From assembly GCA_902494875.1 (NCBI GenBank), contig CABUUO010000002.1:166671-230670 (forward strand): a stretch of DNA of 64,000 nt, read 5' to 3'. This document shows positions 19,255 through 52,000 of this stretch, one piece after another; position 1 is the stretch's first letter, and every line of letters starts with the position of its first letter. A program made the position numbers and the translations under genes. The DNA is from an uncultured Pseudomonadota bacterium. GTDB taxonomy: Bacteria; Pseudomonadota; Alphaproteobacteria; RF32; CAG-239. The notes beneath the pieces were generated by a model that ran no database searches, was not told the DNA's origin, and was given only the letters and a program-made list of their open reading frames with translations.

Positions 19255-22200
19255 ATGGATTCGTTTTTAAAGAGGTCTTTTATGTGCCGAAAGAGACTGG
19301 AAATTTTGGTTTCTTGTCTGTTCTTGTCAAGTTTTTGCTGTGGTACGGCAAAAGCTCAGACTTCCGTAGATTCATGGGATGCTCTGAAAACGGGTGTGGC
19401 AGCCGGAGAGGTGGCACTTGGAGGAGACATTCAGGCAACGGCCAATCAGCCGATCCGCGATTATCAAAACGGGGCGGTAATTCACGGCAACGGACATAAA
19501 ATTACCGGCAGCGACTATATGACGGATTCTGCCGGCGGCGGCGGATTGATCGTTTTAGACAAGGTTTCGGGAGACGGGCTGAGTCTGGACGGCGTAGATG
19601 TCAGCGGTTTTCATAATACTTCTTCGGACGATGACGCCAGCGGAACCGGCGTTATTTATGTTAAAGATTCAAATATGGGGACGATTGACGGCAAGTTTTC
19701 CGACAACAGCGTCATAAGCAGTTATGGTACTATCGGTTCGGTCGTCAGCAATGCGGGCGGAAAGATTGCCGGCATTACCGATAGTGTTTTTGAGGGAAAC
19801 AGCGTAGCAGAAAACAGTTCCGAAAAAGACGAGGTTACGTCCCGCGGTGGCGCCGTATATAACGGTGCGTCCGATGATAATGCCGGCGTTATCGGGGACA
19901 TTACCGGATCGACGTTTAAGAATAATTCGGTTACTTCCGAAAACAACGGTGCCGGCGGCGGCGCAATTTACAACTCCGCCGACAGTTCGATAGGCAATAT
20001 TGCGGCTGATTTCAGCGGCAATAAGGTTATCAGCAACGCTAATGTTGACAAGGACCGTTTTGTTGCCAACGGCGGTGCCATTTATAACAATGCTTCAAGC
20101 ATCGGAAATATTTCCGGCAATTTTACTCAAAACAGCGTGGAAGCCACCCAAAGCGGAAGTGCCGGCGGCGGTGCTATATTGAACCGCGACGGAGCGGAAA
20201 TCAAAGATGTCAGCGGCACTTTTTCCGGTAATACGGCGACCGGCAGCGGAGCATACGGCGGCGCGATTTTGTCGGCCGGTTCAAGTACGGAAGATTCTAA
20301 AATAGGCAATATTACGGCTGATTTTACACAAAACGAAGCCGTCGGTACGGAAGGGGCGTATGGCGGAGCCATTGACAACGAAGCCAAAAGCATGATAGGC
20401 ACCATAAGCGGAAAGTTCGACGGAAACGCGGCGGTTTCGGAGAAGGAATCTCTGGGCGGTGCCATTTATAACGGCGGTACGATTACCAATATCGAAAACG
20501 CAACCTTTACCGATAATAAGGCGGAAGCGACGACGGAAGGCGGACAGGCTTTGGGCGGTGCCATTTATACGGAAACGGATCTGACCATATCCGCCAATAA
20601 CGGAGATTCGTTGTTTTCGGGAAATGTGACTTATGTAAACGGCGAAAGTTTTTCCAATGCGGTTTATGTCGGAAATCAAGACGCAATATTAAGTTTGAAT
20701 GCCAAGAACGGTAATATAACGTTTGACGACGGTATTTACGGGAGCAAGGGTTATCAAGTTCAAATCGGCGGTGATGCCACCGGTTCGGTTAACTTGAATG
20801 AACAGATCGGCAATGCGGGAGAAATATCTGTTGATGACGGGGTAACGGTTAATTTTGGCGAAAAAGTGACGGTTGATACGGATTTAAACGTTAATAACGG
20901 CACGGTTAACGATGCCAGCATTGTCAACGGGGGAAAGATTTCCGTTGCAGCCGGTTCCACGGCTCATAATTTGGCGCTGTTGGCCGGTTCCGGATTTGAT
21001 TTTTCCGACGGCGCCGTTTTGACCGGCAGTATTTTGATTGACAAAGGTGCTGTTTCCGCTTCCAGCTATGACCATATTTTTGCCAATGACGTTGAAAGCA
21101 AACTGATTTTGACCGGTGGTTTTAACGAGGCCTTTACGGCATTGAAAAACGATTATGCTGACAAAAGTCTGGTATTGGCGAACGGAACTTATAATTTTTC
21201 CGGCGAAAGCGGAAAAGGACTTGAGCTTTCAGGCTGGGAATCAATAACCATCGGTTCGGACGACGGAAACGCAGCAGTCGGCAAGCTGGAAGGCAATATG
21301 AATATGCCTGATGTAACCGACAGTTTATATATTAAAAAGAACGGCACGTTTGATTTGTCCGGCAGCGGCGCCGGGGTTTTTGAGTTCGGCGGTTCGGTGG
21401 TTAACGACGGCACAATTTCTTTTCAGGACAATTCCGCCGACGATGTTACGACCATAAAAGGCAGTTATACGGCTCAAAACAATGCGCAGATGATTGTTGA
21501 CGTCGATCCGTCAGCCGGAACGTCTGATCTGCTCAAGATAGAAGGCGATGTTGTCGGGCATACGTCCGTTGTGGTTAACGCTTTGGGCAGCGGTATATCA
21601 AGAAATCAGATTTTATTTGCCGACGTGAGCGGTGACGATGAGGCAACGGCTTCTTCTTTTGACGTATACCGGGTTATGAATAATCCGTTTATGTGGAATG
21701 CGGTTTTGGAAGACAAAAAATGGTATTTTGACAAGACCAATATTGTGGTCGGTGAGGTTATCGCCTATACGGGGCTGCCCGGTGCCGGCATAGATCAAAC
21801 CAGAGGTCTGATTGACAATATTTCCGCCAATTCACATGGAACGGAAAAAACCAAAAAAGAGTGTCAGTATTATAAGGACTATTTCCGCTGCCGGAGCTAT
21901 AATACGCTTAACACTTGGGTTGCGCCGGTTTACGGCACGTCAGACGTTACGGCTCCGTTTAAGTATACGGCCGACGTTGCGGGCGTGGATGCGGGCGTGG
22001 ACGTTGACTACGGCTTTTACAACAAGTTGGGATTGTTTATGTCTTACCGCACGGGGGCGTATGATTTTGACGGAACCGGAGAAGAAATTTCTTCGGACAC
22101 GGGTTCCAGCATTGATATCAACAGCTATCTGGCCGGTTTATATTATCGGTACGAGCGCGGTTATCTGTGGACGATGTCTACGATTTTCGGCGGCGTGCAA

Positions 22201-22692
22201 AATGCGGAAATGAGCTCGGATGACGGTGTCAGTTCGGATACCAGCGGTATGGAGCTTGGCGCCAGTTTTGAGGCCGGTTTGATTTTTAATCCGATGACGG
22301 ATTTGTTTATCGAACCGATTGTCGGACTGTTTTATACGCATATTGCCTATGACGATTTTACGGACGATTATGGCAAAAAGGTTGAGTATGACGCGGTTAT
22401 GAATTTGGATTTGGAAGCGGGAATCCGAATTGAAAAAAGGTTTAAGACCGACAACGGTTATGCCAAGTTTTATTTCAAGCCGAGCGTTATTCAGAGCCTG
22501 TCTTCCGGAGACGTCAATATCAGCGAGCTGCCGGCGATGAGCAGCACGGACAACCGGACTCTGACAAAGTTTGAATTTGGCGGCAGCATTGATTTCAGCG
22601 ACGGCTGGAACGGTTTCGGCAATGTATCTTACATTACCGGCAGCGATTACAGCAATGTGGCGGCAAACGTCGGCGTGAACTATACCTGGTAA
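19255..22692 (+). CDS. Autotransporter (type Va) outer-membrane protein with a Pmp-like passenger domain. It carries at least 8 tandem GGA[IVL]-x(15-20)-FxxN repeats and a C-terminal beta-barrel translocator ending NVGVNYTW.
   Basis: N-terminal signal peptide (LEILVSCLFLSSFCCGTAKAQ). Repeated units GGAIYN...IGNI.G.F..N occupy roughly nt 19800..20620. The C-terminal approximately 300 aa has alternating beta-strand hydrophobicity and a terminal aromatic residue. Confidence 0.85.
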   Translation: MDSFLKRSFMCRKRLEILVSCLFLSSFCCGTAKAQTSVDSWDALKTGVAAGEVALGGDIQATANQPIRDYQNGAVIHGNGHKITGSDYMTDSAGGGGLIVLDKVSGDGLSLDGVDVSGFHNTSSDDDASGTGVIYVKDSNMGTIDGKFSDNSVISSYGTIGSVVSNAGGKIAGITDSVFEGNSVAENSSEKDEVTSRGGAVYNGASDDNAGVIGDITGSTFKNNSVTSENNGAGGGAIYNSADSSIGNIAADFSGNKVISNANVDKDRFVANGGAIYNNASSIGNISGNFTQNSVEATQSGSAGGGAILNRDGAEIKDVSGTFSGNTATGSGAYGGAILSAGSSTEDSKIGNITADFTQNEAVGTEGAYGGAIDNEAKSMIGTISGKFDGNAAVSEKESLGGAIYNGGTITNIENATFTDNKAEATTEGGQALGGAIYTETDLTISANNGDSLFSGNVTYVNGESFSNAVYVGNQDAILSLNAKNGNITFDDGIYGSKGYQVQIGGDATGSVNLNEQIGNAGEISVDDGVTVNFGEKVTVDTDLNVNNGTVNDASIVNGGKISVAAGSTAHNLALLAGSGFDFSDGAVLTGSILIDKGAVSASSYDHIFANDVESKLILTGGFNEAFTALKNDYADKSLVLANGTYNFSGESGKGLELSGWESITIGSDDGNAAVGKLEGNMNMPDVTDSLYIKKNGTFDLSGSGAGVFEFGGSVVNDGTISFQDNSADDVTTIKGSYTAQNNAQMIVDVDPSAGTSDLLKIEGDVVGHTSVVVNALGSGISRNQILFADVSGDDEATASSFDVYRVMNNPFMWNAVLEDKKWYFDKTNIVVGEVIAYTGLPGAGIDQTRGLIDNISANSHGTEKTKKECQYYKDYFRCRSYNTLNTWVAPVYGTSDVTAPFKYTADVAGVDAGVDVDYGFYNKLGLFMSYRTGAYDFDGTGEEISSDTGSSIDINSYLAGLYYRYERGYLWTMSTIFGGVQNAEMSSDDGVSSDTSGMELGASFEAGLIFNPMTDLFIEPIVGLFYTHIAYDDFTDDYGKKVEYDAVMNLDLEAGIRIEKRFKTDNGYAKFYFKPSVIQSLSSGDVNISELPAMSSTDNRTLTKFEFGGSIDFSDGWNGFGNVSYITGSDYSNVAANVGVNYTW

Positions 22693-24520: not shown

Positions 24521-25507
24521 ATGGTTGACGCAAGCAGGGAAGACGCTTCGGAGAAGAGAAAAACGGGCGTTTCGGTTAAGTTTAAAAAAGGAATCAAAAT
24601 TGCCGTATTTGCGACGGTTGTGGCCGGTGCCGGATACGGTTTGTGGAAAAATCCGCAGGTTGTAGAACAGGTTAAAACCTGGCTGGGCACGTCAGCGGCA
24701 GCGGAAGAAAATGAAACGGCCGTTTTGCGGGAGGAAGTACGTGATCTGCGGGTACAGCTGAACAATTTGCAGCGTCAGTTTTACGAACAGCAGGATAATT
24801 CGGTTCTGATGGAAAAATTTGCCAATCTGGAACGCTATAACTTGAATGTAATTAATTCCAAAGCCGACGTGGCGGCCGTTTTGGGGCTGGTGATGCGGAT
24901 GGACAAGGCCGAACAGAAACTGGAAGCCGTTGCCGGCGCGACGGATCGCGGCGCTCTGGTTTTGACGGCAACCATGTTGGTTAAAGAAAGCGCGGATCGC
25001 GGCGGAAGTTTTGAATATGAAGCCGAGGTACTGCGTCAGTTGGCTTCGGGAAACACAGAACTGAAAGATGCTGTGGAAGAAATTGTCAAGACCGCAAAGA
25101 CCGGTGTGGTAACGAATCAGCAGCTGGCCGGGGAGTTTGCCGGCGTGTATGAAAAACTGGTCAAAAAACAGCGCGAGGCTTTTGAGCAGGACTGGAAAGA
25201 CCGTCTCAACAACAAAATCAGCGAATATATCAAAGTCAAAAAAGTTAACGAAAAAGCCCGGGAATTTGAGGAAAATCGGGAGCTGGAGCTGGTTAAGGAC
25301 GACGTTGCGGCCGGAAATATCAAAAAAGCGTTGTTTGATTTGGAAAATATTAAGAATAAAGAGTTATTAAATGAAGAAAGCCTGAAAGCATGGATGCGCA
25401 AGGCCGGAGACAAGGTTGGATTCAACGATGCGGTTAACCGGATTTCCGCTTATTATCTGGCGTCTCTGAAAATTAACTTTATGAAAAAGGAAACCAGTCA
25501 TGACTAG
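24521..25507 (+). CDS. HemX-like / alphaproteobacterial Mic60 (mitofilin)-like candidate: N-terminal TM helix, long coiled-coil, C-terminal globular region.
   Basis: 328 aa. TM at about residues 25-45. Heptad-rich charged middle region. It occupies the slot that in other alphaproteobacteria lies between hemC/hemD and the HemY_N gene, and it overlaps the start of the following gene (ATGACTAG). Confidence 0.45.
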   Translation: MVDASREDASEKRKTGVSVKFKKGIKIAVFATVVAGAGYGLWKNPQVVEQVKTWLGTSAAAEENETAVLREEVRDLRVQLNNLQRQFYEQQDNSVLMEKFANLERYNLNVINSKADVAAVLGLVMRMDKAEQKLEAVAGATDRGALVLTATMLVKESADRGGSFEYEAEVLRQLASGNTELKDAVEEIVKTAKTGVVTNQQLAGEFAGVYEKLVKKQREAFEQDWKDRLNNKISEYIKVKKVNEKAREFEENRELELVKDDVAAGNIKKALFDLENIKNKELLNEESLKAWMRKAGDKVGFNDAVNRISAYYLASLKINFMKKETSHD

Positions 25508-26933
25508 AAAAACCTCCATCTTTATTTTTATCGGTTTGATTTTTACATTTGTGTTGTGGATGTGCGACAAGTCAAGCCTGGTTGCCGTTGATTGGCGCAA
25601 CACCCACTCGGAATTTTCCATTCCGGAAGCCATGCTTTTTGCGCTGGTTGTTTTTGCGGTGATAGACATGATGACCCGGATTGTCCGCAAGCTGATAAAA
25701 GCTCAGTTGAAAGAGGTTTATAAGACTTCGGTTTTCCGGGAAAATACCGACGAGAATGCCACGATTGACGTTTTGGCCGGGAAAATAAGCGACAAGCTGG
25801 TTATCAACCGACGCGACTTTGACAGTTCAATGCTGCTGGTGCTGAGAGCCATGACTTCAATTACGGCCGGAGATATGCGCGAAGCCCGCGAAAACCTCAG
25901 AGCGCTGAAAAAAATCATCGGCAACGATCCTATTATCGACGTTTTGAAAATGAAGATTTACAAAGGCGAAAAAGATTTTGACAAGATGGAAAAGCTTTCC
26001 GCCAAACTGATGAAAAACGAAAACATCCGGATTGTCGGCATGAAAGCCGCAGTTGAAGCGCAGATGCAAAAGAAAGAGTTTAAGGAAGCGCTGGAAACGG
26101 CCAATAAGGCTTTTGAGCTGCGTCAGGACCTCTACTGGGTTATTGAAAGCGCTTTTGAACTGCGTGCCAAGGCCAAAGACTGGGACGGGGCAATGCAGGT
26201 TTTGGATGCCGGCTATAAGAAAAAAATGATTGCCGAAGAGAAATTTAAGCGCTTTAAGGCGGTAATTCTGCTGGAAATGGCCAAAGAATATGAAGCCAAG
26301 GGCGATGACGTCAACTTCTTCAAATGCTGCAGCCAGTCGATAGACATGGATCCGACGTTGGCGCCGGCGGCTTTGGAAATGGCCAGATATTATGTCAAGA
26401 ACGACAATCAGTACCGCAAGGCTGCCAAGGTTCTAACCGAGGCCTGGAAGCGCAATCCGGTTGACGAGCTGGCTTATGCCTATCTGGCATTGTGGCCGAA
26501 GGATGATATTTTGGAAAAAATCAAAAGAATGGAAAGTTTTGCAATGTTGAACGGTCTGCGGCCGTCGCTCAACAACCGTATTTTGGCAGAACTGACTTCC
26601 AAAGCCGGTTTGTGGGGCAAAGCCAAAGGCGAGATAGAAGTCTTTCTCATTAACAACCCGTGCACAAAAACCATTTGCGACATTGCGGCCAAATATGAGG
26701 AAAAACATACCAAAGACAAAGCGGCAGCCAAAGAATGGAAGAACCGCGCCAAAAACTGCGCACATGATTCTGCCTGGGTCTGCGAAGAATGCGGCAACGT
26801 TTCGGAAAAATGGGACGCTGTTTGTCCTAAATGCGGCGCTTTCGGTCAGGACAAATGGCATTTGTATGTGGAAGACAGCGTAGAACCGCAGACGGCTGAA
26901 ACTTTGAACGCAAAAGAAGAAGACGATGAATAA
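25500..26933 (+). CDS. HemY_N-domain TPR protein with a C-terminal Cys4 zinc ribbon.
   Basis: N-terminal two TM helices, a TPR-like helical repeat region, then a C-terminal zinc ribbon (CAHDSAWVCEECG...CPKCGAF). Translationally coupled to both the upstream and downstream genes. Confidence 0.6.
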   Translation: MTRKTSIFIFIGLIFTFVLWMCDKSSLVAVDWRNTHSEFSIPEAMLFALVVFAVIDMMTRIVRKLIKAQLKEVYKTSVFRENTDENATIDVLAGKISDKLVINRRDFDSSMLLVLRAMTSITAGDMREARENLRALKKIIGNDPIIDVLKMKIYKGEKDFDKMEKLSAKLMKNENIRIVGMKAAVEAQMQKKEFKEALETANKAFELRQDLYWVIESAFELRAKAKDWDGAMQVLDAGYKKKMIAEEKFKRFKAVILLEMAKEYEAKGDDVNFFKCCSQSIDMDPTLAPAALEMARYYVKNDNQYRKAAKVLTEAWKRNPVDELAYAYLALWPKDDILEKIKRMESFAMLNGLRPSLNNRILAELTSKAGLWGKAKGEIEVFLINNPCTKTICDIAAKYEEKHTKDKAAAKEWKNRAKNCAHDSAWVCEECGNVSEKWDAVCPKCGAFGQDKWHLYVEDSVEPQTAETLNAKEEDDE

Positions 26934-28338
26934 TCAGACGAAGAATTACGAAAATCTGAAAAAGGAGTGGCTGGACAGATATGCATCTGTGCCGGCCGCT
27001 TTGGCACAGATGAAAAATATCAAGGCGGCGGCAACGGCTTTCAATACCAATGTTGACGCGGTTTTGAAAATTTCGGGCCGGCAGCTCGGCCAACTGATTT
27101 CGCAGCAGCATCTGAGTCTGTCCGATATGCAGAATATCCGGGAAACCAAGCTAAATACGCCGGAAGACGTGGTTAAGGGCATTTTCAAGTGTTTCAGCAA
27201 GGGAATTGCCGAAGAATGGATTACCGAAGACAAGAAAGTTTATGACTGGATGGTCAAAAATCTGGGGTATGACCGTTTGCAAATGGGCGGGCAGGGCGGC
27301 ATTGTTGCCAATGTTCTGGCCGTGGCCGGCGTAAAAAAGGTTTATGCCCATGCTAACTCACTGCCAAAGTTGCAGTCTGACCAGTTTTTAAAGCTGGACA
27401 ATCTGTTGTCGTTTGACGAACACGGAAACGAAAAGCCGGCTTATCAGATTGACCGGCAGACGGACATTCCCCTGATTCACTGGATTATCGAGTTTGACAG
27501 AGAGGATGAGCTTTTGCTGGAAGGACAAGTCTTCAAATGTCCTAAATCCAACCGCTTTATTGCAACCTATGATCCTTTGAACCTGCATCTGGTGATGGAC
27601 GACAATTTTGTAAAGGCTTCGGTCGTCAATCCGCTGGATTATGTGATTTTATCCGGTTTTCATGCCTTAACGGAAAACAACGACGGCGTGGCTCTGGCCG
27701 AAAATGCGCTGCCGCTTATCAAAACCTGGAAGGAAAACGGGGCGATTGTTCATTTGGAAATTGCTTCCACGCAGGATTTGGCGGTAAGGAAGTCCATTAT
27801 TGAAAAAATTGCGCCGAAAGTGGATTCAATTGGCATAAACGAGCGTGAAACCATTGACATTCTGGAGGTTACCGGACAGGAAAAACTGGCCGAAGAATGC
27901 GAAAAAGACACGCACAGCGTTTGTTTGTTCCGGGCGCTTAACGAAATTAAGAAAACCATCAAAGCGCCGCGAATCCAGATGCATATGTTCGGCCTGTATA
28001 TTACTGTTCAGGACAAGGGCTTTAAGATTTCTCCCGAGGCTAATCTGCGCGGGATGATGACGGCGGCGACGGTTGCGGCCGGAAAAGCCGGCACCGGCAG
28101 CGTCAACGAGGCAAAAAATTTGCTTTGGGCACAGGGACAAACGGTTTCCGAGACCGGTCTCAAAGAACTTGAAGATTTGGCCGCATATATCGGAGACGAG
28201 GGTTTGGCCGAAAGCGGAATTGCATCTTATCAGGATTGGGACGTTATCGCCGTGCCGACGATTTTGGTTGAAAAACCGATAACTCTGGTGGGAATGGGGG
28301 ACACCATATCTTCTGTGTCGCTGCTGGCCGCAAGGTAA
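26926..28338 (+). CDS. ADP-dependent sugar kinase (ADP-dependent glucokinase/phosphofructokinase family, ribokinase superfamily).
   Basis: Family motifs present: FNTNVDAV (NxNxD); GGQGGIVANVL (archaeal ADP-GK has GGQAGIMAN); NRFIATYD; SIGINERE; MHMFGLYI; and the C-terminal catalytic GMGDTISS (GXGD). The start overlaps the previous gene (ATGAATAA). Confidence 0.7.
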   Translation: MNNQTKNYENLKKEWLDRYASVPAALAQMKNIKAAATAFNTNVDAVLKISGRQLGQLISQQHLSLSDMQNIRETKLNTPEDVVKGIFKCFSKGIAEEWITEDKKVYDWMVKNLGYDRLQMGGQGGIVANVLAVAGVKKVYAHANSLPKLQSDQFLKLDNLLSFDEHGNEKPAYQIDRQTDIPLIHWIIEFDREDELLLEGQVFKCPKSNRFIATYDPLNLHLVMDDNFVKASVVNPLDYVILSGFHALTENNDGVALAENALPLIKTWKENGAIVHLEIASTQDLAVRKSIIEKIAPKVDSIGINERETIDILEVTGQEKLAEECEKDTHSVCLFRALNEIKKTIKAPRIQMHMFGLYITVQDKGFKISPEANLRGMMTAATVAAGKAGTGSVNEAKNLLWAQGQTVSETGLKELEDLAAYIGDEGLAESGIASYQDWDVIAVPTILVEKPITLVGMGDTISSVSLLAAR

Positions 28339-28387
28339 AAAAGCGGTAAAGACGAGCGTCAGGCGGAATATCTTTGTGCCGAACGAA

Positions 28388-37513: not shown

Positions 37514-37996
37514 ATGACTGAAGAAGTTTCCCTGGCTTCCCAAGTCGCTAGCAAATGGCGCAAAAAACGCGGGTCATTGATTATGGCTCTGCACGAAATT
37601 CAAGATGTCAAAGGTTATGTTCCCTGGGAAGACGCGGTTGACATTGCCAACGGCATGAACGTTCCTCTGGCACGGATTTATGAGGTTTTGACTTTTTACA
37701 ATTTTTTCAAGCTTGACGCTCCCGGCAAAGCGGTTATTTCGGTTTGTACCGGAACGGCCTGTTATTTGAAAGGCAATGACAAGGTTCTGGAAGAATTTAA
37801 GAAACAACTCGGCATCAATGAAGGCGAAAGCACTTCAGACCGGATGTTCCATTTGCAGGTGGTGCGCTGCGTCGGCTGCTGCGGTCTGGCTCCGGTCTGC
37901 GTTGTCAACGGCAAGACTTACGGCCGAATCACTCCCGCGGATGTAAGCAAAATCCTTGAAGAGTGGAAAAACAAACTTGACGAAGACAAGGAGTAG
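37514..37996 (+). CDS. hydC: [FeFe]-hydrogenase gamma subunit HydC (NuoE / 24-kDa-subunit-like thioredoxin-fold 2Fe-2S protein).
   Basis: 160 aa. Cys ligands CTGTAC...CVGCCGLAPV are typical of NuoE/HndA. Confidence 0.8.
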   Translation: MTEEVSLASQVASKWRKKRGSLIMALHEIQDVKGYVPWEDAVDIANGMNVPLARIYEVLTFYNFFKLDAPGKAVISVCTGTACYLKGNDKVLEEFKKQLGINEGESTSDRMFHLQVVRCVGCCGLAPVCVVNGKTYGRITPADVSKILEEWKNKLDEDKE

Positions 37997-38000
37997 AACC

Positions 38001-39689
38001 ATGGCCGAAATTGACAAGAGATTTGACATTCATGAAATAGCCGCTGCCAAAAAACAGGATTTGGAGCGGTTTGTTTGTAATATTTACTGCTGCCACTCAA
38101 CGGGGTGCAAGTCTTCGGGCAGCGACGACATTATCGATCTGATTAAAGAAGCCATTGAAGAGCATGACCTTGAAGACAGAGTGCGAATCGTGGCGACCGG
38201 CTGTATGGGCCTTTGCGCGCAGGGGCCGCTGGTGCGGGTTGAGATTAAAGGCCAGAAAGACGTTTTGTATAAAAGGCTGGAACCGCTGGTTGCACGGCTG
38301 ATTGTTACTGAGCATATCGTTCCGGCGCTTAAGCTGGAAAAAGGCGAGGAATTTCAGGTTCCCGAATTTTTGCAGAAATACGTTTTGTCTTTGGAGCTGC
38401 CGTTTTTCACCAAGCAGGAAAAGGTGGTTTTGAAGGACGCCGGCAACCTTGATCCGGAAGATATTCAGGAATATATTGCCCACGGCGGATATCTGGCTTT
38501 GGAAAAAGTTTTGAAAACCATGAAACCTGCGGACGTGGTTGCGGAAATCAAAAAGTCCGGTTTGCGCGGACGCGGCGGCGGCGGTTTTTCTACCGGCATG
38601 AAATGGGAGATTGCCTCCAGAACGCCGACGGTTGACGAAAAGTTTATTATCTGCAACGGCGACGAGGGCGATCCCGGCGCCTATATGGACCGCAGCATTC
38701 TGGAAGGAAATCCGCACGCAGTGATTGAAGGCATGATGATTGCGGCCTATGCCATCGGCGCAACGGAAGGATGGTTTTATGTCCGCGCCGAATATCCGCT
38801 GGCCGTCGAGCGTCTGGAAAAAGCGATTAAGGCCTGCAAGAAGACCAGACTGCTCGGCAACAACATCATGGGCACGGATTTTTCTTTTAACATAGACGTT
38901 CGCCTCGGCGCCGGCGCTTTTGTCTGCGGCGAGGAAACCGCTTTAATCCGCTCAATTGAAGGCAACCGAGGCACACCGCGTCCGCGTCCGCCGTATCCGA
39001 CTGACAGGGGGTTGTGGAACAAACCTTCCTGCGTAAACAACGTCGAAACGCTGGCCAACGTGGCGAGCATTATTCTTAAAGGCGCCGACTGGTTTGCTTC
39101 TTTCGGTACCGAAACGTCCAAAGGAACCAAGGTTTTTGCCCTGACCGGACAGGTTGAGCATTCGGGACTGATTGAAGTGCCGATGGGAATTACCATTAAC
39201 GAAATCGTCAATGAAATCGGCGGCGGTGTTCCGAACGGTAAAAAACTGAAAGCGGTGCAAACCGGCGGCCCTTCCGGCGGCGTTATTCCCGCGGACAAGC
39301 TGGATTTGCCGGTTTGTTACGAGGAACTCAAAAAAGTCGGTTCCATTATGGGGTCCGGCGGTATGATCGTGATGGACGACAGTTCCAACATGGTCGACAT
39401 TGCTAATTTTTATCTTGATTTTACGGTTGACGAATCCTGCGGAAAATGCGCGCCGTGCCGTATCGGCGGCAAGCAGATGCTGCTTTTGCTTGAGAAAATA
39501 AACAAAGGCAAGGGTACCAAACAGGATATTGCCGATTTGAAGCGGATTGCAACCGCAATGCAAAAGGCTTCTCTGTGCGGATTGGGGCAGACTGCTCCGA
39601 ATCCGGTTCTTTCAACGCTGCGCTTCTTTGAAGACGAGTATCTGGCCAAAGTCGGCGAAACTAAAGAAAACAGAGCGGGGGAGAAATAA
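38001..39689 (+). CDS. hydB: [FeFe]-hydrogenase beta subunit HydB (NuoF / 51-kDa-subunit-like NAD(H)-binding flavoprotein with extra N-terminal 2Fe-2S and C-terminal 4Fe-4S domains).
   Basis: N-terminal CHSTGC...TGCMGLC. FMN/NADH site RGRGGGGFSTGMKW and the GDEGDPGA motif. C-terminal CGKCAPCR. The start at 38001 is preceded by GGAG. Confidence 0.85.
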   Translation: MAEIDKRFDIHEIAAAKKQDLERFVCNIYCCHSTGCKSSGSDDIIDLIKEAIEEHDLEDRVRIVATGCMGLCAQGPLVRVEIKGQKDVLYKRLEPLVARLIVTEHIVPALKLEKGEEFQVPEFLQKYVLSLELPFFTKQEKVVLKDAGNLDPEDIQEYIAHGGYLALEKVLKTMKPADVVAEIKKSGLRGRGGGGFSTGMKWEIASRTPTVDEKFIICNGDEGDPGAYMDRSILEGNPHAVIEGMMIAAYAIGATEGWFYVRAEYPLAVERLEKAIKACKKTRLLGNNIMGTDFSFNIDVRLGAGAFVCGEETALIRSIEGNRGTPRPRPPYPTDRGLWNKPSCVNNVETLANVASIILKGADWFASFGTETSKGTKVFALTGQVEHSGLIEVPMGITINEIVNEIGGGVPNGKKLKAVQTGGPSGGVIPADKLDLPVCYEELKKVGSIMGSGGMIVMDDSSNMVDIANFYLDFTVDESCGKCAPCRIGGKQMLLLLEKINKGKGTKQDIADLKRIATAMQKASLCGLGQTAPNPVLSTLRFFEDEYLAKVGETKENRAGEK

Positions 39690-39690
39690 G

Positions 39691-41460
39691 ATGGTAAATT
39701 TGAAAATAGATAATTTTGACGTTGATGTTCCGGCCGGCACCTCTATTTTAGATGCGGCGAGAACGGTGCAGATTGACATTCCGACCCTGTGCAAACATCC
39801 CGACGTCGATCCGTCCGCCGGCTGCGGCATTTGCATCGTCAAGGTTAACGGAAGGATTATGCGTTCCTGTTGTACGCCGGTAGCCGAAGGAATGCAGGTT
39901 ATTACTTCCGATCCGGAAATTGTGAGTGTGCGGCGGACGGTTCTGGAATTGATTTTAAGCAATCACCCGAACGAATGCCTGAACTGTATTCGTTCCGGTC
40001 ACTGCGAGTTGCAGGATCTGACCAATACTTTCGGTATTCGCAGTTCCAATCTGCTGAGCCTGAATAAAAAATATGAGATTGACGATTCAACGCATTCGAT
40101 TGTTTTGGATCCGTCCAAGTGCATAGTCTGCGGCCGCTGCGTGGAAGTCTGCCAAAATCAGCAGAACGTATGGGCTTTGAGTTATCTTAACCGCGGTCTG
40201 GCCACTAAAATTACGGCAGCCGGCGGCATTAAGCTGGCGGACAGCCCCTGTATCAAATGCGGACAATGTTCGGCGCATTGTCCGACCGGTGCGATTGTCG
40301 AATATGACGAGACGCAGAAGGTTTGGGATATGCTGGCAGATCCGGAGCTGGTGACGATCGTGCAGATTGCGCCGGCGGTACGCGTAGCCATCGGCGAAGA
40401 GTTCGGCTATGATTTTGGCGAGAATCTGACCGGAAAAACCTATGCGGCGCTGCGTCGTCTCGGTTTTAACAAAATTTTTGATACAAACTTCGGTGCGGAC
40501 TTGACGATTATTGAGGAAGCGACGGAGTTTGTCCGTCGCTTTACCAAGGAACCGGAATCGCTGCCGATGTTTACGTCTTGCTGTCCGGCCTGGGTGGATA
40601 TGCTAGAAAAATATCATCAGGATATGATTCCTAATTTTTCGACCTGCAAATCGCCGCAATCGATGGTGGGGGCAATGGCCAAGACCTATTATGCCGAGAA
40701 AAATGCCATTGATCCGGCTAAAATCCGCGTGATTTCGGTAATGCCGTGCACGGCCAAAAAATGGGAAATTGTCCGTAGCGAAGATATGCGTTCTTCCGGT
40801 TTTCAGGATGTTGACGTATCGATCACGACCCGAGAACTGGCAAGGATGATTAAACAGGCCGGCATCAATTTCCGTGCTCTGCCGGAGGAAAAGGCGGATA
40901 ATCCGCTGGGCGAATATTCCGGTGCGGCAACGATTTTCGGTACAACCGGCGGCGTTATGACCGCGGCGCTCAGAACCGCTTATTTCTATATTACCGGCGA
41001 AGAACTTGAAAATATTGACTTTAAGGAAATCGACGGTTTGGAAGGCGTCAAAGAGGCCGAGGTCGACATTAAGGGGATCAAGGTCAGGATAGCCGTTGCC
41101 CATGGTGCCGGCAATGTCGAAACCGTGTTGAACCGTATTCGCGAAGCCAAGGCCAACGGCGAAGAGCTGCCATATCACTTTGTAGAGGTTATGGCCTGCC
41201 GCGGCGGTTGTGTTTCCGGCGGCGGTCAGCCGCGGGTTATGATGCCGGGACAGCCTAAACCGCGCGGGATTACCGACGACATTCGCAAGAAACGGGCACA
41301 GGGTCTGCTGAATGAAGATTTGCAGGCTAAAAACCGTCGTTCGCATCATAACGAATCGATAAAAACGCTGTATAAGGAATATCTGGGTGAGCCCAACGGG
41401 GAAAAATCGCATCATTTGCTGCATACGCATTATGAACCCCGCCGCAAATATTCCAAATAA
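39691..41460 (+). CDS. hydA: [FeFe]-hydrogenase catalytic subunit HydA (M3-type: N-terminal 2Fe-2S domain, His-ligated 4Fe-4S, two ferredoxin-like 4Fe-4S sites, then the H-cluster domain).
   Basis: H-cluster signature motifs L1 TSCCPAW, L2 MPCTAKK and L3 EVMACRGGCVSGGGQP are all present. N-terminal CKHPDVDPSAGCGICIV, CIVCGRCVEVC and CIKCGQCSAHCP. The start ATG at 39691 follows the hydB stop by 1 nt. Confidence 0.9.
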   Translation: MVNLKIDNFDVDVPAGTSILDAARTVQIDIPTLCKHPDVDPSAGCGICIVKVNGRIMRSCCTPVAEGMQVITSDPEIVSVRRTVLELILSNHPNECLNCIRSGHCELQDLTNTFGIRSSNLLSLNKKYEIDDSTHSIVLDPSKCIVCGRCVEVCQNQQNVWALSYLNRGLATKITAAGGIKLADSPCIKCGQCSAHCPTGAIVEYDETQKVWDMLADPELVTIVQIAPAVRVAIGEEFGYDFGENLTGKTYAALRRLGFNKIFDTNFGADLTIIEEATEFVRRFTKEPESLPMFTSCCPAWVDMLEKYHQDMIPNFSTCKSPQSMVGAMAKTYYAEKNAIDPAKIRVISVMPCTAKKWEIVRSEDMRSSGFQDVDVSITTRELARMIKQAGINFRALPEEKADNPLGEYSGAATIFGTTGGVMTAALRTAYFYITGEELENIDFKEIDGLEGVKEAEVDIKGIKVRIAVAHGAGNVETVLNRIREAKANGEELPYHFVEVMACRGGCVSGGGQPRVMMPGQPKPRGITDDIRKKRAQGLLNEDLQAKNRRSHHNESIKTLYKEYLGEPNGEKSHHLLHTHYEPRRKYSK

Positions 41461-41535: not shown

Positions 41536-42642
41536 TTATAAAATAATATGCGGAACAAAGTTGCTCATATTATGGGTTATGCGGGAAGCGGTTTCCCTGA
41601 TTCCCATGCCACAGGGGGCACCGCCGATAATCCAGCTGCCCAAGACGGGATAACGGCATTGAAACGAAGGAATATCCACCAGTTCCTGATAAACGTGGCC
41701 TTCTTTACCGTATTCTCCTCCGGTGCTTTCCAGAACCAGTCCGTTGCGAATCAGTTCAATATTGGCACCTTCGCGGGAGAACACCGGTTTCTTACAATAA
41801 GACTTCAAGTGTCCTGGTTCGCTGTAAGCCGGCAGAATATAAGGACTGTCCGGAAACATTTCATATAAAACAGACAGCATGGCCTTGTTGGACATGAGGG
41901 ATTTCCAGAGCGGCTCAATCCAGCACATCGGCGTCATACATCCTTCCGGGTCTTCTTCAAACATCGTTTCCCAGGGATAAAGTTTGAACATACAGTCAAT
42001 AGGAATATCTTCCTGCAGATAGAGGGCGTTGCCAAAGTGTTCGACATTGCGGATATCCGTTTCGCTGACCGAAAGTCCGGCCTCGACGGCGGTGGAGATA
42101 ATATAAGCCAAAGTAGCGTTATCTTCCAGACAATCCGAAATTGAGGCAAATACATAGTTTTCGCATTTATATACCTGATGAATGTCTTTCCACGACTGAA
42201 CCAATGCCTCATGAAGATAATTAAACTGGTCTGCCTGCGGAAACAGGTCCTGTTTCCACTGCCATTGGATGACGGCGGCTTCTATCAGCGAGGTCGGTGT
42301 GTCGGCATTGAATTCCAGAAGTTTGGGAATGCCGTTGACAAAAGCAAAATCAAAGCGGCCGTATAAAGACAAGTCGTCGTCTTCCCAGCTTTGGCGGATG
42401 CTGTTTCTGAGAAGCGGCGGAATGTGCAGGCGGTCAAGTTTTTTGTCATCGTAAAGGCAGGTCTCTACGGCATCGCAGTACATTTGGTAACATTCGCGGC
42501 TGGCTTTTTCTATTTCGGCGATTTCTTCGGCCGAAAAAATATAATAAGCGTTTTCAAGCCAATATTCCTGATGAAAACCGAAACCTAAGTTCTCGACGGT
42601 CTTTTCGTAACCGGGGCGAGGCGTAATCATGTTTCTTTCCAT
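41536..42642 (-). CDS. Glutathionylspermidine synthase-like ATP-grasp family protein (GspS C-terminal-domain homologue; YgiC/YjfC-like). The longer ORF reaches 42873.
   Basis: Likely start is MERNMITPRPGYEK. The sequence resembles the GSP-synthetase pre-ATP-grasp/ATP-grasp family (LIEAAVIQWQW..., C-terminal ...GSWIIGG). Confidence 0.55.
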   Translation of the reverse strand: MERNMITPRPGYEKTVENLGFGFHQEYWLENAYYIFSAEEIAEIEKASRECYQMYCDAVETCLYDDKKLDRLHIPPLLRNSIRQSWEDDDLSLYGRFDFAFVNGIPKLLEFNADTPTSLIEAAVIQWQWKQDLFPQADQFNYLHEALVQSWKDIHQVYKCENYVFASISDCLEDNATLAYIISTAVEAGLSVSETDIRNVEHFGNALYLQEDIPIDCMFKLYPWETMFEEDPEGCMTPMCWIEPLWKSLMSNKAMLSVLYEMFPDSPYILPAYSEPGHLKSYCKKPVFSREGANIELIRNGLVLESTGGEYGKEGHVYQELVDIPSFQCRYPVLGSWIIGGAPCGMGIRETASRITHNMSNFVPHIIL

Positions 42643-42646
42643 AATG

Positions 42647-43045
42647 TTACGCGCCGAAAGAACGAGACGGGCTGACACTTTTTCCGAAAGAGCGGCTCGC
42701 CGGTTTAGAACTGCTGTTGTAAGATCTCGTCGATGAGGATGAATTCGGTTTGACCGAAGCCGGACGATAGGTTGATTCACTGATACCGGTCGGCGGATTG
42801 ACTTTTGTGCCGCTGCCGTTGGTCCAAGAATTGCTGCCCGGATAGTAGTAGTAAGACGGAGAACCGCCGCCATGAGGCATCAACGCCCATCTCATCAGAG
42901 CTGCGTTGTAAATCCAAGAGTTTCCCTGAGAATCAACGTGTTTTTCCTTATCTTTGGGATTTTGGGGCAGAGTGTCTTTCTGCGTGCAGGAAATGAAAAA
43001 AGATAAACTTAATCCTGCAATTAACAAAAATTTTAATTTCTTCAT
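42647..43045 (-). CDS. Small secreted protein / probable lipoprotein, rich in Ser/Tyr/Pro/Gly.
   Basis: N-terminal MKKLKFLLIAGLSLSFFISC: a signal peptide with a lipobox-like Cys. Low-complexity mature part. Confidence 0.4.
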   Translation of the reverse strand: MKKLKFLLIAGLSLSFFISCTQKDTLPQNPKDKEKHVDSQGNSWIYNAALMRWALMPHGGGSPSYYYYPGSNSWTNGSGTKVNPPTGISESTYRPASVKPNSSSSTRSYNSSSKPASRSFGKSVSPSRSFGA

Positions 43046-43727: not shown

Positions 43728-44228
43728 ATGAAGAAAGTATTTTGGGCTTTGGTTGCTTTAATATTTTTGCCTGCTTTTGTATCCGGTGATATGATTCAGT
43801 TAATGGATGCGCTTAAAAAGGATGAAAAACCGCGGATTGAAGAATTAATAAACAGCAAAAATATTGATTTAAATAGCGGTTTTGAAAATCTTTTGGTGGT
43901 TTATCTCTATGCGAAAGAAAAAAATGCTGAGCTTGAATTTGTCCGTTATCTGCTAGACAAAGGAGTTAATCCGGATTATGCGCCGGGGATTCCGGCAATA
44001 GACATTGCTATTATGCAAGGACGGAGCGACATTGTTTCTTTGTTGATTGAAAAAGGTGCGGATGTTAATATAATTGAAAAACGCAAGGGTTTTTCACCGT
44101 TGGGAATGGCTTTGCTTGTCAGGGATTGCAAGGTGGCGGATATGTTGAAAAAAGCCGGTGCTGTTTTAGATAAAGACAGCCGCAAAGATGTCTTGTTCAT
44201 CAGGGAGCGGGAGTGTTTTGGCGGATAA
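43728..44228 (+). CDS. Secreted ankyrin-repeat protein.
   Basis: Signal peptide MKKVFWALVALIFLPAFVSG. Ankyrin-like repeat units (e.g. ...GVNPDYAPGIPAIDIAIMQGRSDIVSLLIEKGADVN...) spanning about three repeats. Confidence 0.7.
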   Translation: MKKVFWALVALIFLPAFVSGDMIQLMDALKKDEKPRIEELINSKNIDLNSGFENLLVVYLYAKEKNAELEFVRYLLDKGVNPDYAPGIPAIDIAIMQGRSDIVSLLIEKGADVNIIEKRKGFSPLGMALLVRDCKVADMLKKAGAVLDKDSRKDVLFIRERECFGG

Positions 44229-49957: not shown

Positions 49958-52000
49958 ATGAAATCAGCCGCCGAATCTGAGTGTTCCGAAGTTTTCAAAC
50001 CTCTGCCGAAGGGATTTAACAGAGGGCGGAAGTTTACGGTGACGTTTTCGGTTTGCAACAATCCGTATTTTAGGGAAATCCAAAACATTTCAAAAAAACA
50101 GTGTCTCGGTAAAGCCGAATGGCCGGCGTTTGAAAAAGTACGCGCCTGGATGATTTCGGCCGAGACCGGCACTTTTATGAAATGGGGCGGTTTGGGAATG
50201 GTTGCTTCCGAACTGCCGGAAGCCTTTAACAAATGTTTTAATGCCGAGGGCAGCGAAATGCTGGTGGTGACGCCGCTTTACAAAGGCAATACCGGCAAAA
50301 AAAAGGCGGAGCTGGACGGACTTTGTTACCGCGGCGCGGAGAAAAAAGAAGTGCTGCTGTCTTTGGCTACGGTCGTTACAGTTTCGTTTGCCGGCGCCCG
50401 CGGAACGTTGGTGAATTATAAAGTTAAGGTTTATACCGCGGGCTGCGGCCGGACGGGTTATATTTTTCTGGAAAACGACCGTTTCTTTTCAATTAATCCT
50501 CGTGCCGACAATCCGCCGGCGCAGGACGGATGCTATGTGCTGAACGAACATAACGTCAACGAGGTTGAGCGTTTTGCGTTTTTTTCCAAAGCCGTTTACC
50601 GCTTGATTGAAGATATTGTTGCAAAAAAAGTTACCGGGATTGAAAAGCCGGACATTTTGCTGGCCAATGACTGGCACAGCGGCGCAATTTCGGGGCTGGT
50701 CAAATATCTGCCGGTTGCCAAAGCTGAAGCCGGGATTATGGATGAGATGTCCGCCGCCGCAATCGGGCATATTCCGGTGATTCATCTGGCGCACCATCTG
50801 GGATATCAGGGCTGGGACTATCAAAATACCGCCAAGCTTTTAAACTCTTTATATGAAAATCTGGCAACCAATGTTTTTAAGAATGCAAAAGCGGTCAAGA
50901 CCGCCAATCCGCGGACCAAAAACGCGCTGATTGTTTATGACAGCTATAATCAGGCGGCCTGTAACTTCAATTTGGCCGACCGAGTGGTGACGGTTTCCAA
51001 AAACTATATGGAGGAAGTTTCCAAGGAACTTTCAATGGGGTTCGATTTTCGCGACGTTTTGAAAATCCGCAAAGACCACCGCAACTTTTTCGGCATTGTC
51101 AACGGCTATGACAAAAAACTGATTGCGCCGCTTAAAGACAAAATCGAGGCAATCAACCAGTATTTCGGCTGTGATTTTAAGTTTTATGACGAAAGCAATC
51201 CGGACGTTAAATTGCAAAACAAGGCGGCATTTATCCGGTTGATTTCAAAAATTGCCCGGGACAAGGCTTATAAAGACCGGGTTATTCCGCTGGTGGATAC
51301 CTATTGTTTTGAAGATATTGAAAAAGATGTCAAAAATCCTGAAAAAACGCCGATTTTCTGCGCAACAAGCCGTCTGGTGGAGCAGAAGGGCTATGACATT
51401 GCCGCGCAGGCAATTGTCAATATTGTCGAAAACCATACTTACCGGGAATATCCGATATTTATTCTCGGAGGCGCCGGTTCTGCCGAATATTTTCAGAAAG
51501 TGCTGGAAAAACTGAAAGACAAGGTCAGAAAAATCAGTCCGCTGGCGGCTAAAAGGATTTTTGTTTTCCGCGGGTATAAAGATGAATTTGCCTATGCGGT
51601 GCAGCTGGCCGCGGATTTTTATATGATGCCGTCGCGGTTTGAGCCCTGCGGTTTGACACAGATGGAAGCTATGGCCAAAGGTGCGCTGCCGGTCGCTACT
51701 TCGACCGGCGGGCTGGTCGATACGATAGAAGACGGTACGGACGGTTTTCGCACCGAGGTCTTTTTTTCCAAAAAGCAGCATGTCTACGGCAGCAATCTTA
51801 TGGCCAAGCGTTTGAAAAACAACGTCAACGCCTATACTCAGGCGCTGAACAAAGCTTTGGAGACTTTTTACAACCGACCCGAGACAATTCGGCAGATGAC
51901 GCAAAATGCCATGCGTAAGGATTTCAGCTGGGATGTTCCCGGAGGATCCGTCTATAAATATCACAATCTGCTTTTAAAAGGATGTATATTGGACGGCTGA
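49958..52000 (+). CDS. glgA: GT5-family glycogen/starch synthase (GlgA-like), unusually long (680 aa from the first ATG; alternative start at 50150 gives 617 aa).
   Basis: N-terminal donor-binding motif MKWGGLGMV (GlgA has KTGGLGDV). C-terminal GT-B motif RFEPCGLTQMEAMAKGALPVATSTGGLVDTI. Compared with a bacterial GlgA of about 480 aa there is a long central insertion. Confidence 0.7.
   Translation: MKSAAESECSEVFKPLPKGFNRGRKFTVTFSVCNNPYFREIQNISKKQCLGKAEWPAFEKVRAWMISAETGTFMKWGGLGMVASELPEAFNKCFNAEGSEMLVVTPLYKGNTGKKKAELDGLCYRGAEKKEVLLSLATVVTVSFAGARGTLVNYKVKVYTAGCGRTGYIFLENDRFFSINPRADNPPAQDGCYVLNEHNVNEVERFAFFSKAVYRLIEDIVAKKVTGIEKPDILLANDWHSGAISGLVKYLPVAKAEAGIMDEMSAAAIGHIPVIHLAHHLGYQGWDYQNTAKLLNSLYENLATNVFKNAKAVKTANPRTKNALIVYDSYNQAACNFNLADRVVTVSKNYMEEVSKELSMGFDFRDVLKIRKDHRNFFGIVNGYDKKLIAPLKDKIEAINQYFGCDFKFYDESNPDVKLQNKAAFIRLISKIARDKAYKDRVIPLVDTYCFEDIEKDVKNPEKTPIFCATSRLVEQKGYDIAAQAIVNIVENHTYREYPIFILGGAGSAEYFQKVLEKLKDKVRKISPLAAKRIFVFRGYKDEFAYAVQLAADFYMMPSRFEPCGLTQMEAMAKGALPVATSTGGLVDTIEDGTDGFRTEVFFSKKQHVYGSNLMAKRLKNNVNAYTQALNKALETFYNRPETIRQMTQNAMRKDFSWDVPGGSVYKYHNLLLKGCILDG

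Follow-up and report, generated by a model that had tools for sequence, protein, structure and literature searches.

A predicted glucose-specific ADP-dependent glucokinase encoded at a conserved locus of uncultured gut Alphaproteobacteria

Which sugar would be phosphorylated by an ADP-dependent kinase encoded in the genome of a gut alphaproteobacterium, and how did such a gene arrive there? In textbooks, glycolytic kinases that depend on ADP are archaeal enzymes, and what is known of their biochemistry comes almost entirely from hyperthermophiles and methanogens, together with the mammalian ADPGK. The question is raised by a stretch of 64,000 nucleotides from contig CABUUO010000002.1 of an uncultured Pseudomonadota bacterium (the whole stretch is called the window in the following), in which a first-pass annotation had proposed that the plus-strand gene at 26926..28338 encodes a member of this family. 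Our analysis favors, with a probability of about 0.75, a soluble two-domain ADP-dependent glucokinase (ADP-GK) of the ribokinase superfamily, which would convert glucose and MgADP to glucose-6-phosphate and AMP, and whose gene would have been acquired once in the distant past and then been inherited vertically.

The open reading frame (ORF) extends from an ATG start to a stop codon, and its exact bounds (26926..28338, plus strand) as well as the length of its product (470 aa) are those proposed initially. The product matches the Pfam profile PF04587 (ADP_PFK_GK) over its full length (profile positions 3-429 of 430) with 235.8 bits and E = 1e-69, the gathering score being 27. Searches of PDB sequences return exclusively ADP-dependent kinases, and the whole-length alignment with ADP-GK from Pyrococcus that had been claimed for the protein holds, as its residues 15-466 align with residues 4-447 of the P. 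furiosus chain (1ua4). An AlphaFold2 model built from an input alignment of 60 sequences (predicted local distance difference test, 94.7; predicted template modelling score, 0.91) displays the two-domain fold consisting of a Rossmann-like large domain and a large α/β lid. The top 22 Foldseek matches of this model in the PDB are all ADP-dependent kinases, with template modelling (TM) scores of 0.88/0.89 to the glucokinase (GK) of T. litoralis (1gc5; root mean square deviation 2.5 Å) and of 0.85/0.89 to that of P. horikoshii (5o0i). TM-scores range from 0.75 to 0.89 for all solved archaeal ADP-GKs and ADP-dependent phosphofructokinases (ADP-PFKs) and are 0.65-0.66 for mouse ADPGK. Two outcomes had been named as counter-evidence in the first-pass annotation, an assignment to another ribokinase-superfamily clade such as PfkB and a loss of the NxNxD and GXGD motifs, and neither was found: PfkB, ribokinase, and adenosine kinases reach TM-scores of only 0.3-0.4, and both motifs persist in a careful alignment. 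Judged by its sequence, the gene is a genuine member of the family of sugar kinases that depend on ADP (PF04587, ribokinase superfamily), with 26-30% identity to any characterised enzyme.

All five motifs listed for the protein are present, i.e., NTNVD (residues 40-44), GGQGGIVAN (121-129), NRFIATYD (209-216), GINERE (303-308), and GMGDTISS (456-463). Functional roles for several of the residues involved can be taken from the work of Munoz et al. on AncMsPFK, which was solved with fructose-6-phosphate (F6P) and for which the specificity determinants were mapped (PMC7948494). The features of the gene, all on the plus strand, are as follows.

26926..28338, plus strand: coding sequence of the ADP-dependent sugar kinase, 470 aa plus stop, a predicted glucose-specific ADP-glucokinase (ORF, PF04587, AlphaFold2 model)
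27043..27057, plus strand: NxNxD sugar-binding motif, N40, N42, and D44 corresponding to N32, N34, and D36 of AncMsPFK (alignment to 6c8z and family-wide columns; roles from PMC7948494)
27214..27216, plus strand: E97, putative glucose-binding Glu, corresponding to E90 of AncMsPFK (alignment; PMC7948494)
27286..27294, plus strand: G121-G122-Q123, predicted sugar-contact loop inside GGQGGIVAN (alignment)
27472..27480, plus strand: L183-I184-H185, specificity positions with Leu for K179 and His for N181 (alignment)
27553..27573, plus strand: R210 (R206 of AncMsPFK, the family-wide essential Arg) to D216 (R212; Arg in PFKs and bifunctional enzymes, Asp in GKs), inside NRFIATYD (alignment; PMC7948494)
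27751..27759, plus strand: HXE motif H276-L-E278, which would position Mg-ADP (conservation; role from PMC6028617)
27838..27849, plus strand: NXXE motif N305-E-R-E308 inside GINERE, which would position Mg-ADP (conservation; role from PMC6028617)
28291..28302, plus strand: GXGD catalytic motif G456-M457-G458-D459, with D459 as the predicted catalytic base (alignment, conservation)

Invariance of active-site residues was judged on 60 diverse sequences of the bacterial clade described below, and the NxNxD motif is invariant among them. In an alignment of 120 orthologues, 156 of the 470 positions of the kinase are conserved to at least 98%.

Whether the enzyme is a glucokinase or a phosphofructokinase had been left open initially, and NCBI and JGI already carry the protein under the combined name “ADP-dependent glucokinase/phosphofructokinase” (GenBank and IMG auto-annotation). 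According to Munoz et al. (PMC7948494), K179, N181, and R212 of AncMsPFK bind the phosphate of F6P and are kept only in PFKs and bifunctional enzymes, whereas E90 is conserved only in GKs and bifunctional enzymes and is replaced by Ala in the specific PFK; glucose-specific GKs carry His at the position of N181. In AncMsPFK, the Michaelis constant (Km) for F6P rose about 1000-fold upon the K179A mutation and about 200-fold upon N181A or R212A (PMC7948494). We read these columns in an alignment of 138 members of the family, five of them references of characterised structure. At E90/K179/N181/R212, the window kinase has E97/L183/H185/D216 and P. furiosus GK has E/C/H/D, whereas AncMsPFK, ancMT, and the PFK/GK of M. 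jannaschii have E/K/N/R and P. horikoshii PFK has A/K/N/R. The kinase therefore retains the Glu expected of a glucose-phosphorylating enzyme (E90, which is E72 of ancMT), has His for N181, and lacks the triad that marks ADP-PFKs and bifunctional enzymes. The x-H...D pattern recurs in every sampled member of its clade, and H185, D216, E97, R210, D44, and D459 are invariant. Also, every residue reported as a glucose contact in GK structures is kept (D44, E97, G121/G122, Q123, H185, and D459).

The phylogeny leads to the same assignment. Trees were calculated by neighbour-joining with a simple distance correction in our own numpy code, using 200 bootstraps. The family divides into a half with the K-N-R signature and a half with the x-H-D/N signature; the window kinase belongs to the latter, and its grouping with the GK-type sequences as opposed to the PFK references receives a bootstrap value of 100. 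As E97 is kept and the F6P ligands are replaced throughout the clade, a glucose-specific ADP-GK is predicted, and with L183, H185, and D216 in place of the residues that bind the phosphate, F6P should not be accepted efficiently. Thus the initial family assignment stands, and for the part that it left undecided, residues and tree point to a glucose-specific glucokinase rather than a phosphofructokinase as the most likely function. The combined database name is generic and could probably be sharpened to glucokinase.

With regard to the phosphoryl donor, H276 and E278 of HXE, N305 and E308 of NXXE, and the essential R210 are all invariant in the bacterial sequences. The Gly and Asp residues of the GXGD motif do not vary either, and a bulky residue, Met457, takes the place of X. 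Nagata et al. reported that X is small in ATP-dependent enzymes of the ribokinase family and Ile or Leu in ADP-dependent ones (PMC5931981). The bulk of Met457 is consistent with a donor pocket of the ADP type, and from family membership and motifs we infer ADP as the probable donor.

By homology to solved enzymes, a reaction mechanism can be proposed. Glucose would sit in the cleft between the Rossmann-like large domain and the lid, with N40/N42/D44, E97, G121-G122-Q123, and H185 as likely ligands, and the lid would close upon substrate binding. E278 of HXE together with N305 and E308 of NXXE would position Mg-ADP via water molecules, while the bulk of Met457 would occupy the space that ATP would need. 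D459 of GXGD would deprotonate the 6-OH of glucose, which would then attack the β-phosphate of ADP, and R210 would stabilise the transition state.

Several observations weigh against an anciently acquired, glucose-specific ADP-GK and are considered here together. The best raw match among PDB sequences is AncMsPFK (6c8z/6xio) with 206.7 bits, compared with 151 bits for P. furiosus GK, and 6c8z also ranks first by Foldseek E-value. The kinase scores below the cut-offs of the NCBIfam equivalog models, i.e., 204.5 vs 408.1 for ADP-PFK (TIGR02045, the highest NCBIfam score) and 202 vs 387 and 193 vs 554 for ADP-GK (NF010642 and NF010641, which describe archaeal enzymes of the Thermococcales type). 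Residue X of GXGD is neither Ile nor Leu as described for ADP-dependent members, and Q244 of AncMsPFK corresponds to His246, as in most GK-type sequences, unlike P. furiosus GK. The deep nodes of the neighbour-joining tree are weak, with bootstrap values of 9-42 for the branching order of the bacterial clade and the archaeal GKs within the GK half. The neighbouring genes lend no functional support, as an envelope- or heme-associated cluster lies upstream and unrelated genes follow downstream. Finally, a literature search retrieved no biochemical data for any member of the bacterial clade, and donor and acceptor are therefore both predictions.

The first of these points and the top rank of TIGR02045 among the NCBIfam scores, together with the combined database name and with E97, which also fits bifunctionality, might suggest a bifunctional ADP-PFK/GK or an enzyme acting mainly as PFK, as in the Methanosarcinales and Methanococcales, which would cover both ATP-requiring steps of glycolysis. 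We regard this as quite improbable: K179, N181, and R212 are all substituted clade-wide, whereas in AncMsPFK a single mutation at each position was sufficient to raise the Km for F6P 200- to 1000-fold (PMC7948494); the clade is placed in the GK-type half, and the best TM-scores are those to glucose-specific GKs. An assignment as PFK from the raw PDB score was rejected as misleading after the residue and tree analyses. Deciding between GK and PFK by means of NCBIfam equivalogs was also abandoned, as all three models, TIGR02045 included, stay at about half of their cut-offs, and the published specificity residues were used instead. Scores so far under the cut-offs mean that the kinase is not an equivalog of any characterised archaeal enzyme, and we file it as GK-like by its residues and phylogeny.

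The same low scores and the low identity to characterised enzymes would be compatible with an ADP_PFK_GK fold that serves another activity, acting on a different hexose or amino sugar (for instance mannose, glucosamine, or 1,5-anhydroglucitol) or using ATP, GDP, or CDP as donor. Met as X of GXGD, His at the position of Q244, conserved operon partners that are not genes of sugar metabolism, and the fact that archaeal members of the family show some promiscuity for donor and acceptor (PMC12965863) would fit such a view. It is opposed by the retention of all reported glucose contacts and by the invariant HXE and NXXE motifs; since Met equals Leu or Ile in bulk, the argument of a filled ATP pocket still holds. 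Another activity is therefore judged unlikely, and a glucose-specific ADP-GK is the assignment with which we continue.

Where does the gene come from? At E ≤ 1e-3, the family comprises 622 clusters (50% identity) among 1.84 billion representatives. The window kinase falls inside a bacterial subclade of 142 sampled sequences with a bootstrap value of 100, in which labels of Myxococcota, Opitutales (Verrucomicrobiota), Fibrobacteraceae, Planctomycetota, and Flavobacteriaceae occur along with the cultured Marinilabiliales Ancylomarina longa and Labilibaculum. At the phylum level, Bacteroidota, Fibrobacterota, Planctomycetota, Verrucomicrobiota, and Myxococcota are represented. Within the subclade, the gut alphaproteobacterial sequences form a single group (bootstrap 86), their sister relationship being recovered weakly, with bootstrap values of 60-61. 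The nearest outgroups are archaeal, i.e., Promethearchaeota, Heimdallarchaeota, Odin/Asgardarchaeia, Bathyarchaeia, and the GKs of Thermococcales, together with the orphan sequence P0132. The eukaryote-type ADPGKs lie outside the clade that joins bacterial, Asgard, and Thermococcales GKs (bootstrap 100), and a specific affinity to eukaryotic ADPGK was rejected for this reason. The label “archaeal/eukaryote-type” given to the gene initially thus overstates how foreign it is, as the protein belongs to a well-supported bacterial subclade of several phyla. Others have derived eukaryotic ADPGK from Asgard archaea (PMC11976288). The most economical reading of the tree would be that the gene passed from archaea to bacteria in ancient times, was then disseminated among anaerobic bacteria, and was captured a single time by an ancestor of the gut alphaproteobacterial group; of these steps, only the single capture is reasonably supported by the present data.

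P0132, the closest relative outside the bacterial clade, is encoded on a JGI metagenome contig of archaeal type (locus L084, 8014-12784). It is flanked by a glycogen synthase of eukaryote/archaeal type (PF05693) and a glycoside hydrolase family 57 enzyme, which makes up a compact glycogen-linked ADP-GK cluster, and the contig also encodes ribosomal protein S27ae and Kae1.

The genomic context of the alphaproteobacterial kinases was compared in 83 loci, whose kinases range from 54 to 100% identity. In all 83, the order Ogg (minus), TsaD (minus), 328-aa gene (plus), hemY-like gene (plus), kinase (plus) is retained, the 328-aa gene keeping its position upstream of the kinase in most loci. A co-directional upstream ORF of 273-514 aa ends -42 to +123 nucleotides from the kinase start in every locus (83/83), and in 60 of them the two are separated by a gap of at most 30 nucleotides or overlap. 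In the window, the stop of the hemY-like gene and the start of the kinase overlap by 8 nucleotides (26926-26933), ATGAATAA. The two upstream genes are the following.

24521..25507, plus strand: cluster gene 1, 328-aa coiled-coil protein at the would-be hemX-like position
25500..26933, plus strand: cluster gene 2, 477-aa tetratricopeptide repeat (TPR) protein, hemY-like, with a C-terminal LapB-like zinc ribbon

The 477-aa protein reaches 69.8 bits with the hemY-type TPR model TIGR00540, below the cut-off of 142; the 328-aa protein has no match in Pfam or NCBIfam, and Pfam searches with both proteins gave no significant match to Mitofilin or HemX. Both genes adjoin tsaD without hemC or hemD. The pair resembles the hemX/hemY (alphaMic60/Orf52) position of other Alphaproteobacteria, and the kinase is constantly the terminal gene of this hemX/hemY-like cluster. 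Where synteny breaks downstream, the neighbours are DnaE, TyrRS/AnmK, restriction-modification genes, autotransporters, or prophage, none of which provides a functional clue. Counts of promoters and terminators predicted around the kinase were not above those in shuffled sequence, and an Rfam scan of the window gave no matches.

Two side observations concern the region downstream of the kinase. In locus L065 (12788-14605; metagenome-assembled genome (MAG) “Acetobacter sp. 46_36”), a phage major head protein (phrog_514, E = 3e-109) is encoded 1.4 kb downstream of the kinase, which suggests a small integrated prophage where downstream synteny breaks. In the window, about 478 bp between the kinase and corC are missing (junction 28359-28367) that are present in two near-identical relatives, locus L001 and locus L081 (11443-11920), the latter being 99.5% identical to the window at the nucleotide level. 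The segment contains most of a 168-aa ORF for which neither Pfam nor PHROG gives a match. GGCGGA microhomology flanks the deletion, and the kinase is intact.

The composition of the kinase gene is that of its surroundings, with a G+C content of 0.484 compared with a neighbour mean of 0.487, a G+C content at third codon positions of 0.571 compared with 0.558, and mid-range codon usage. One could have suspected that the gene was acquired horizontally only recently, that it was mis-binned as a contaminant of archaeal or other bacterial origin, or that it is a relic in decay, and would in each case tell little about host biology, given that most of the diversity of the family is archaeal and that several related MAGs carry wrong taxon labels. 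The latter applies to four bins with the alphaproteobacterial tsaD...kinase synteny, one labelled Lactobacillaceae (L026), two Bacteroidaceae (L057, L064), and one [Ruminococcus] gnavus (L060); as they share the same synteny, it is the labels that are wrong and not the linkage. Against such an origin, the kinase resides in one contiguous window among core genes (Tim44-like/SecB, TsaD, LptD/SurA/RsmA, and parAB-rsmG-mnmG-mnmE-rho), it occupies the same position in every one of the 83 loci, which stem from many independent assemblies, and its ORF is intact with all catalytic residues conserved. The fixed position and the native composition effectively refute this explanation, to which we assign next to no chance. 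Fixed synteny, native composition, and conservation together argue that the gene was acquired once, long ago, and has since been passed on vertically under purifying selection, and they speak against a recent transfer or a binning artefact.

Among GTDB species representatives, 179 stretches encode a relative of the kinase. The best 80 of these (54-98% identity) are nearly all from gut MAGs of humans, chickens, ruminants, and rabbits, and they are labelled Alphaproteobacteria, Rhodospirillales, Azospirillum, Acetobacter, or Ca. Scatocola, the last of which is assigned to Rhodospirillales at NCBI; a single one is labelled Rickettsiales. The gut alphaproteobacterial branch occurs in at least 80 species-level MAGs. 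The window itself is 96-99% identical at the nucleotide level to a contig of the MAG “uncultured Alphaproteobacteria bacterium BRZ_KF__bin25”. Its core genes are of typical alphaproteobacterial type (a Tim44-like gene adjacent to secB, tsaD, lptD-surA-rsmA, addAB, and the origin-proximal block parAB-rsmG-mnmG-mnmE-rho). An alphaproteobacterial host, as initially proposed, is supported, and it resembles a gut Rhodospirillales lineage and not Rickettsiales; in GTDB, the group is classed as order RF32. The accompanying remark, which called the family rare in bacteria and unreported for Rickettsiales-like genomes, gives a misleading impression in view of the 179 stretches, the names existing at NCBI and JGI, and the Rhodospirillales-like host. 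The occurrence of the family in bacteria has been acknowledged before (PMC7948494), and our literature search turned up neither a characterisation of a bacterial member nor a discussion of the alphaproteobacterial clade.

What might the kinase contribute to the physiology of its host? A glycogen-based fermentative metabolism had been deduced from a GlgA-like synthase gene (49958..52000) and a hydrogenase, and both are real. The [FeFe]-hydrogenase cluster (37514..41460) consists of three genes for NuoE-like, NuoF-like, and HydA proteins, and HydA scores above the cut-off of the NCBIfam model “NADH-dependent [FeFe] hydrogenase, group A6” (796 vs 765 bits). HymABC-type [FeFe] hydrogenases were reported in the same gut alphaproteobacterial group by Degli Esposti et al. 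(PMC4967309). The GlgA-like protein (680 aa, GT5+GT1) is encoded 22 kb from the kinase, is about 200 aa longer than canonical GlgA, and remains below every curated glgA cut-off (225 vs 328 bits), matching in two stretches; it would be a divergent or insert-bearing glucan synthase. The genes behind the proposed picture are therefore in place, although the one for the glucan synthase is distant from the kinase and its product falls below the cut-offs. Their presence makes a fermentative, H2-producing lifestyle that handles α-glucans plausible, and the glycogen-linked neighbourhood of the archaeal-type relative P0132 is in keeping with this picture.

Glycogen phosphorolysis yields glucose-1-phosphate, so that only imported glucose, or glucose set free by debranching or disproportionating enzymes, calls for a glucokinase. 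In the cell, the enzyme would catalyse the step by which glucose, either imported or freed from α-glucans, enters glycolysis. No other glycolytic gene is present within the 64-kb window. The suggestion that ADP-dependent phosphorylation suits an energy-limited anaerobe is not implied by the stoichiometry and is weak on established biochemistry. The phosphoanhydride bond spent is equivalent, and recycling of AMP by adenylate kinase costs one ATP, which leaves the net cost unchanged by the use of ADP. The benefit commonly proposed for ADP-dependent kinases is that glycolysis can be primed at a low ATP/ADP ratio. Homologous enzymes of methanogens serve glycogen catabolism (PMC13267639).

Other genes of the window include those for a 166-aa ankyrin-repeat protein (43728-44228) and a 1145-aa autotransporter (19255-22692), which could be host-interaction genes, and for a protein similar to glutathionylspermidine synthase (41536-42873).

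Taken together, a glucose-specific-looking ADP-GK appears as a fixed core gene of widespread uncultured gut Alphaproteobacteria and as part of a multi-phylum bacterial clade. The occurrence of the family in bacteria and the automatic annotation of the gene were known before, and nothing is overturned; new are the glucose-type assignment, the multi-phylum bacterial subclade, the ancient, syntenic vertical inheritance, and the constant placement in a hemX/hemY-like cluster. For the metabolic reconstruction of these MAGs, this means that a separate PFK is still needed, and a mesophilic bacterial enzyme becomes available for probing specificity rules derived from ancestral reconstruction. A wider scenario, which we consider doubtful at present and offer tentatively, is that the ADP-GK, captured once into the hemX/hemY-like operon, is the sole glucose-phosphorylating enzyme of an order-level, obligately fermentative, H2-evolving lineage of gut Alphaproteobacteria. 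If true, these would be the first Alphaproteobacteria known to begin glycolysis with an ADP-dependent, archaeal-style kinase, the gene having been captured from other anaerobic bacteria and ultimately from archaea. The wiring into the operon would then suggest that the kinase is regulated together with envelope biogenesis and not with sugar catabolism, and the bacterial clade would be the first mesophilic, non-archaeal, non-eukaryotic group of ADP-GKs for biochemistry.

Among known systems, the glucose-specific ADP-GKs of the Thermococcales (P. furiosus 1ua4, P. horikoshii 1l2l/5o0i, and T. litoralis 1gc5/4b8r) belong to the same Pfam family, superpose on the model of the window kinase with TM-scores of 0.85-0.89 and a root mean square deviation of 2.5 Å, and share with it NxNxD, GGQ, HXE, NXXE, and GXGD as well as the specificity signature, i.e., Glu at E90, His at N181, Asp at R212, and no Lys at K179. 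They differ by an identity of only 26-29%, by Ile instead of Met as X of GXGD, and in that the window kinase comes from a mesophilic bacterial host and belongs to a separate bacterial subclade. AncMsPFK and the ADP-PFK/GKs of Methanosarcinales (6c8z, 6xio) are about 30% identical to the window kinase and have E90, R206, and all nucleotide motifs in common with it. In contrast, AncMsPFK, whose GK activity is weak, is a PFK relying on K179, N181, and R212 (PMC7948494), all of which are substituted in the window kinase, and it is located on the other side of the deepest split of the family tree. Eukaryotic ADPGK (mouse 5ccf) and the ADP-GKs of Asgard archaea resemble the window kinase in belonging to the GK-type half and in carrying His at the position of N181, and the Asgard enzymes are among the nearest named outgroups of the bacterial clade. 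The signature of the eukaryote type differs (H-x-D, Q, T, A-H, N), and the similarity between mouse ADPGK and the window kinase is weak (40 bits; TM-score, 0.66). The closest counterparts are the bacterial “glucokinase/phosphofructokinase” proteins of Ancylomarina longa, Labilibaculum sp., and MAGs of Fibrobacteraceae, Planctomycetota, Myxococcota, and Opitutales, which have the same length, are 42-54% identical, and possess identical residues at the invariant positions of the active site and of the specificity signature. The A. longa gene is an isolated one, with clpB on one side and a citrate lyase cluster on the other, a context that gives no functional hint, whereas the alphaproteobacterial branch has its own fixed locus.

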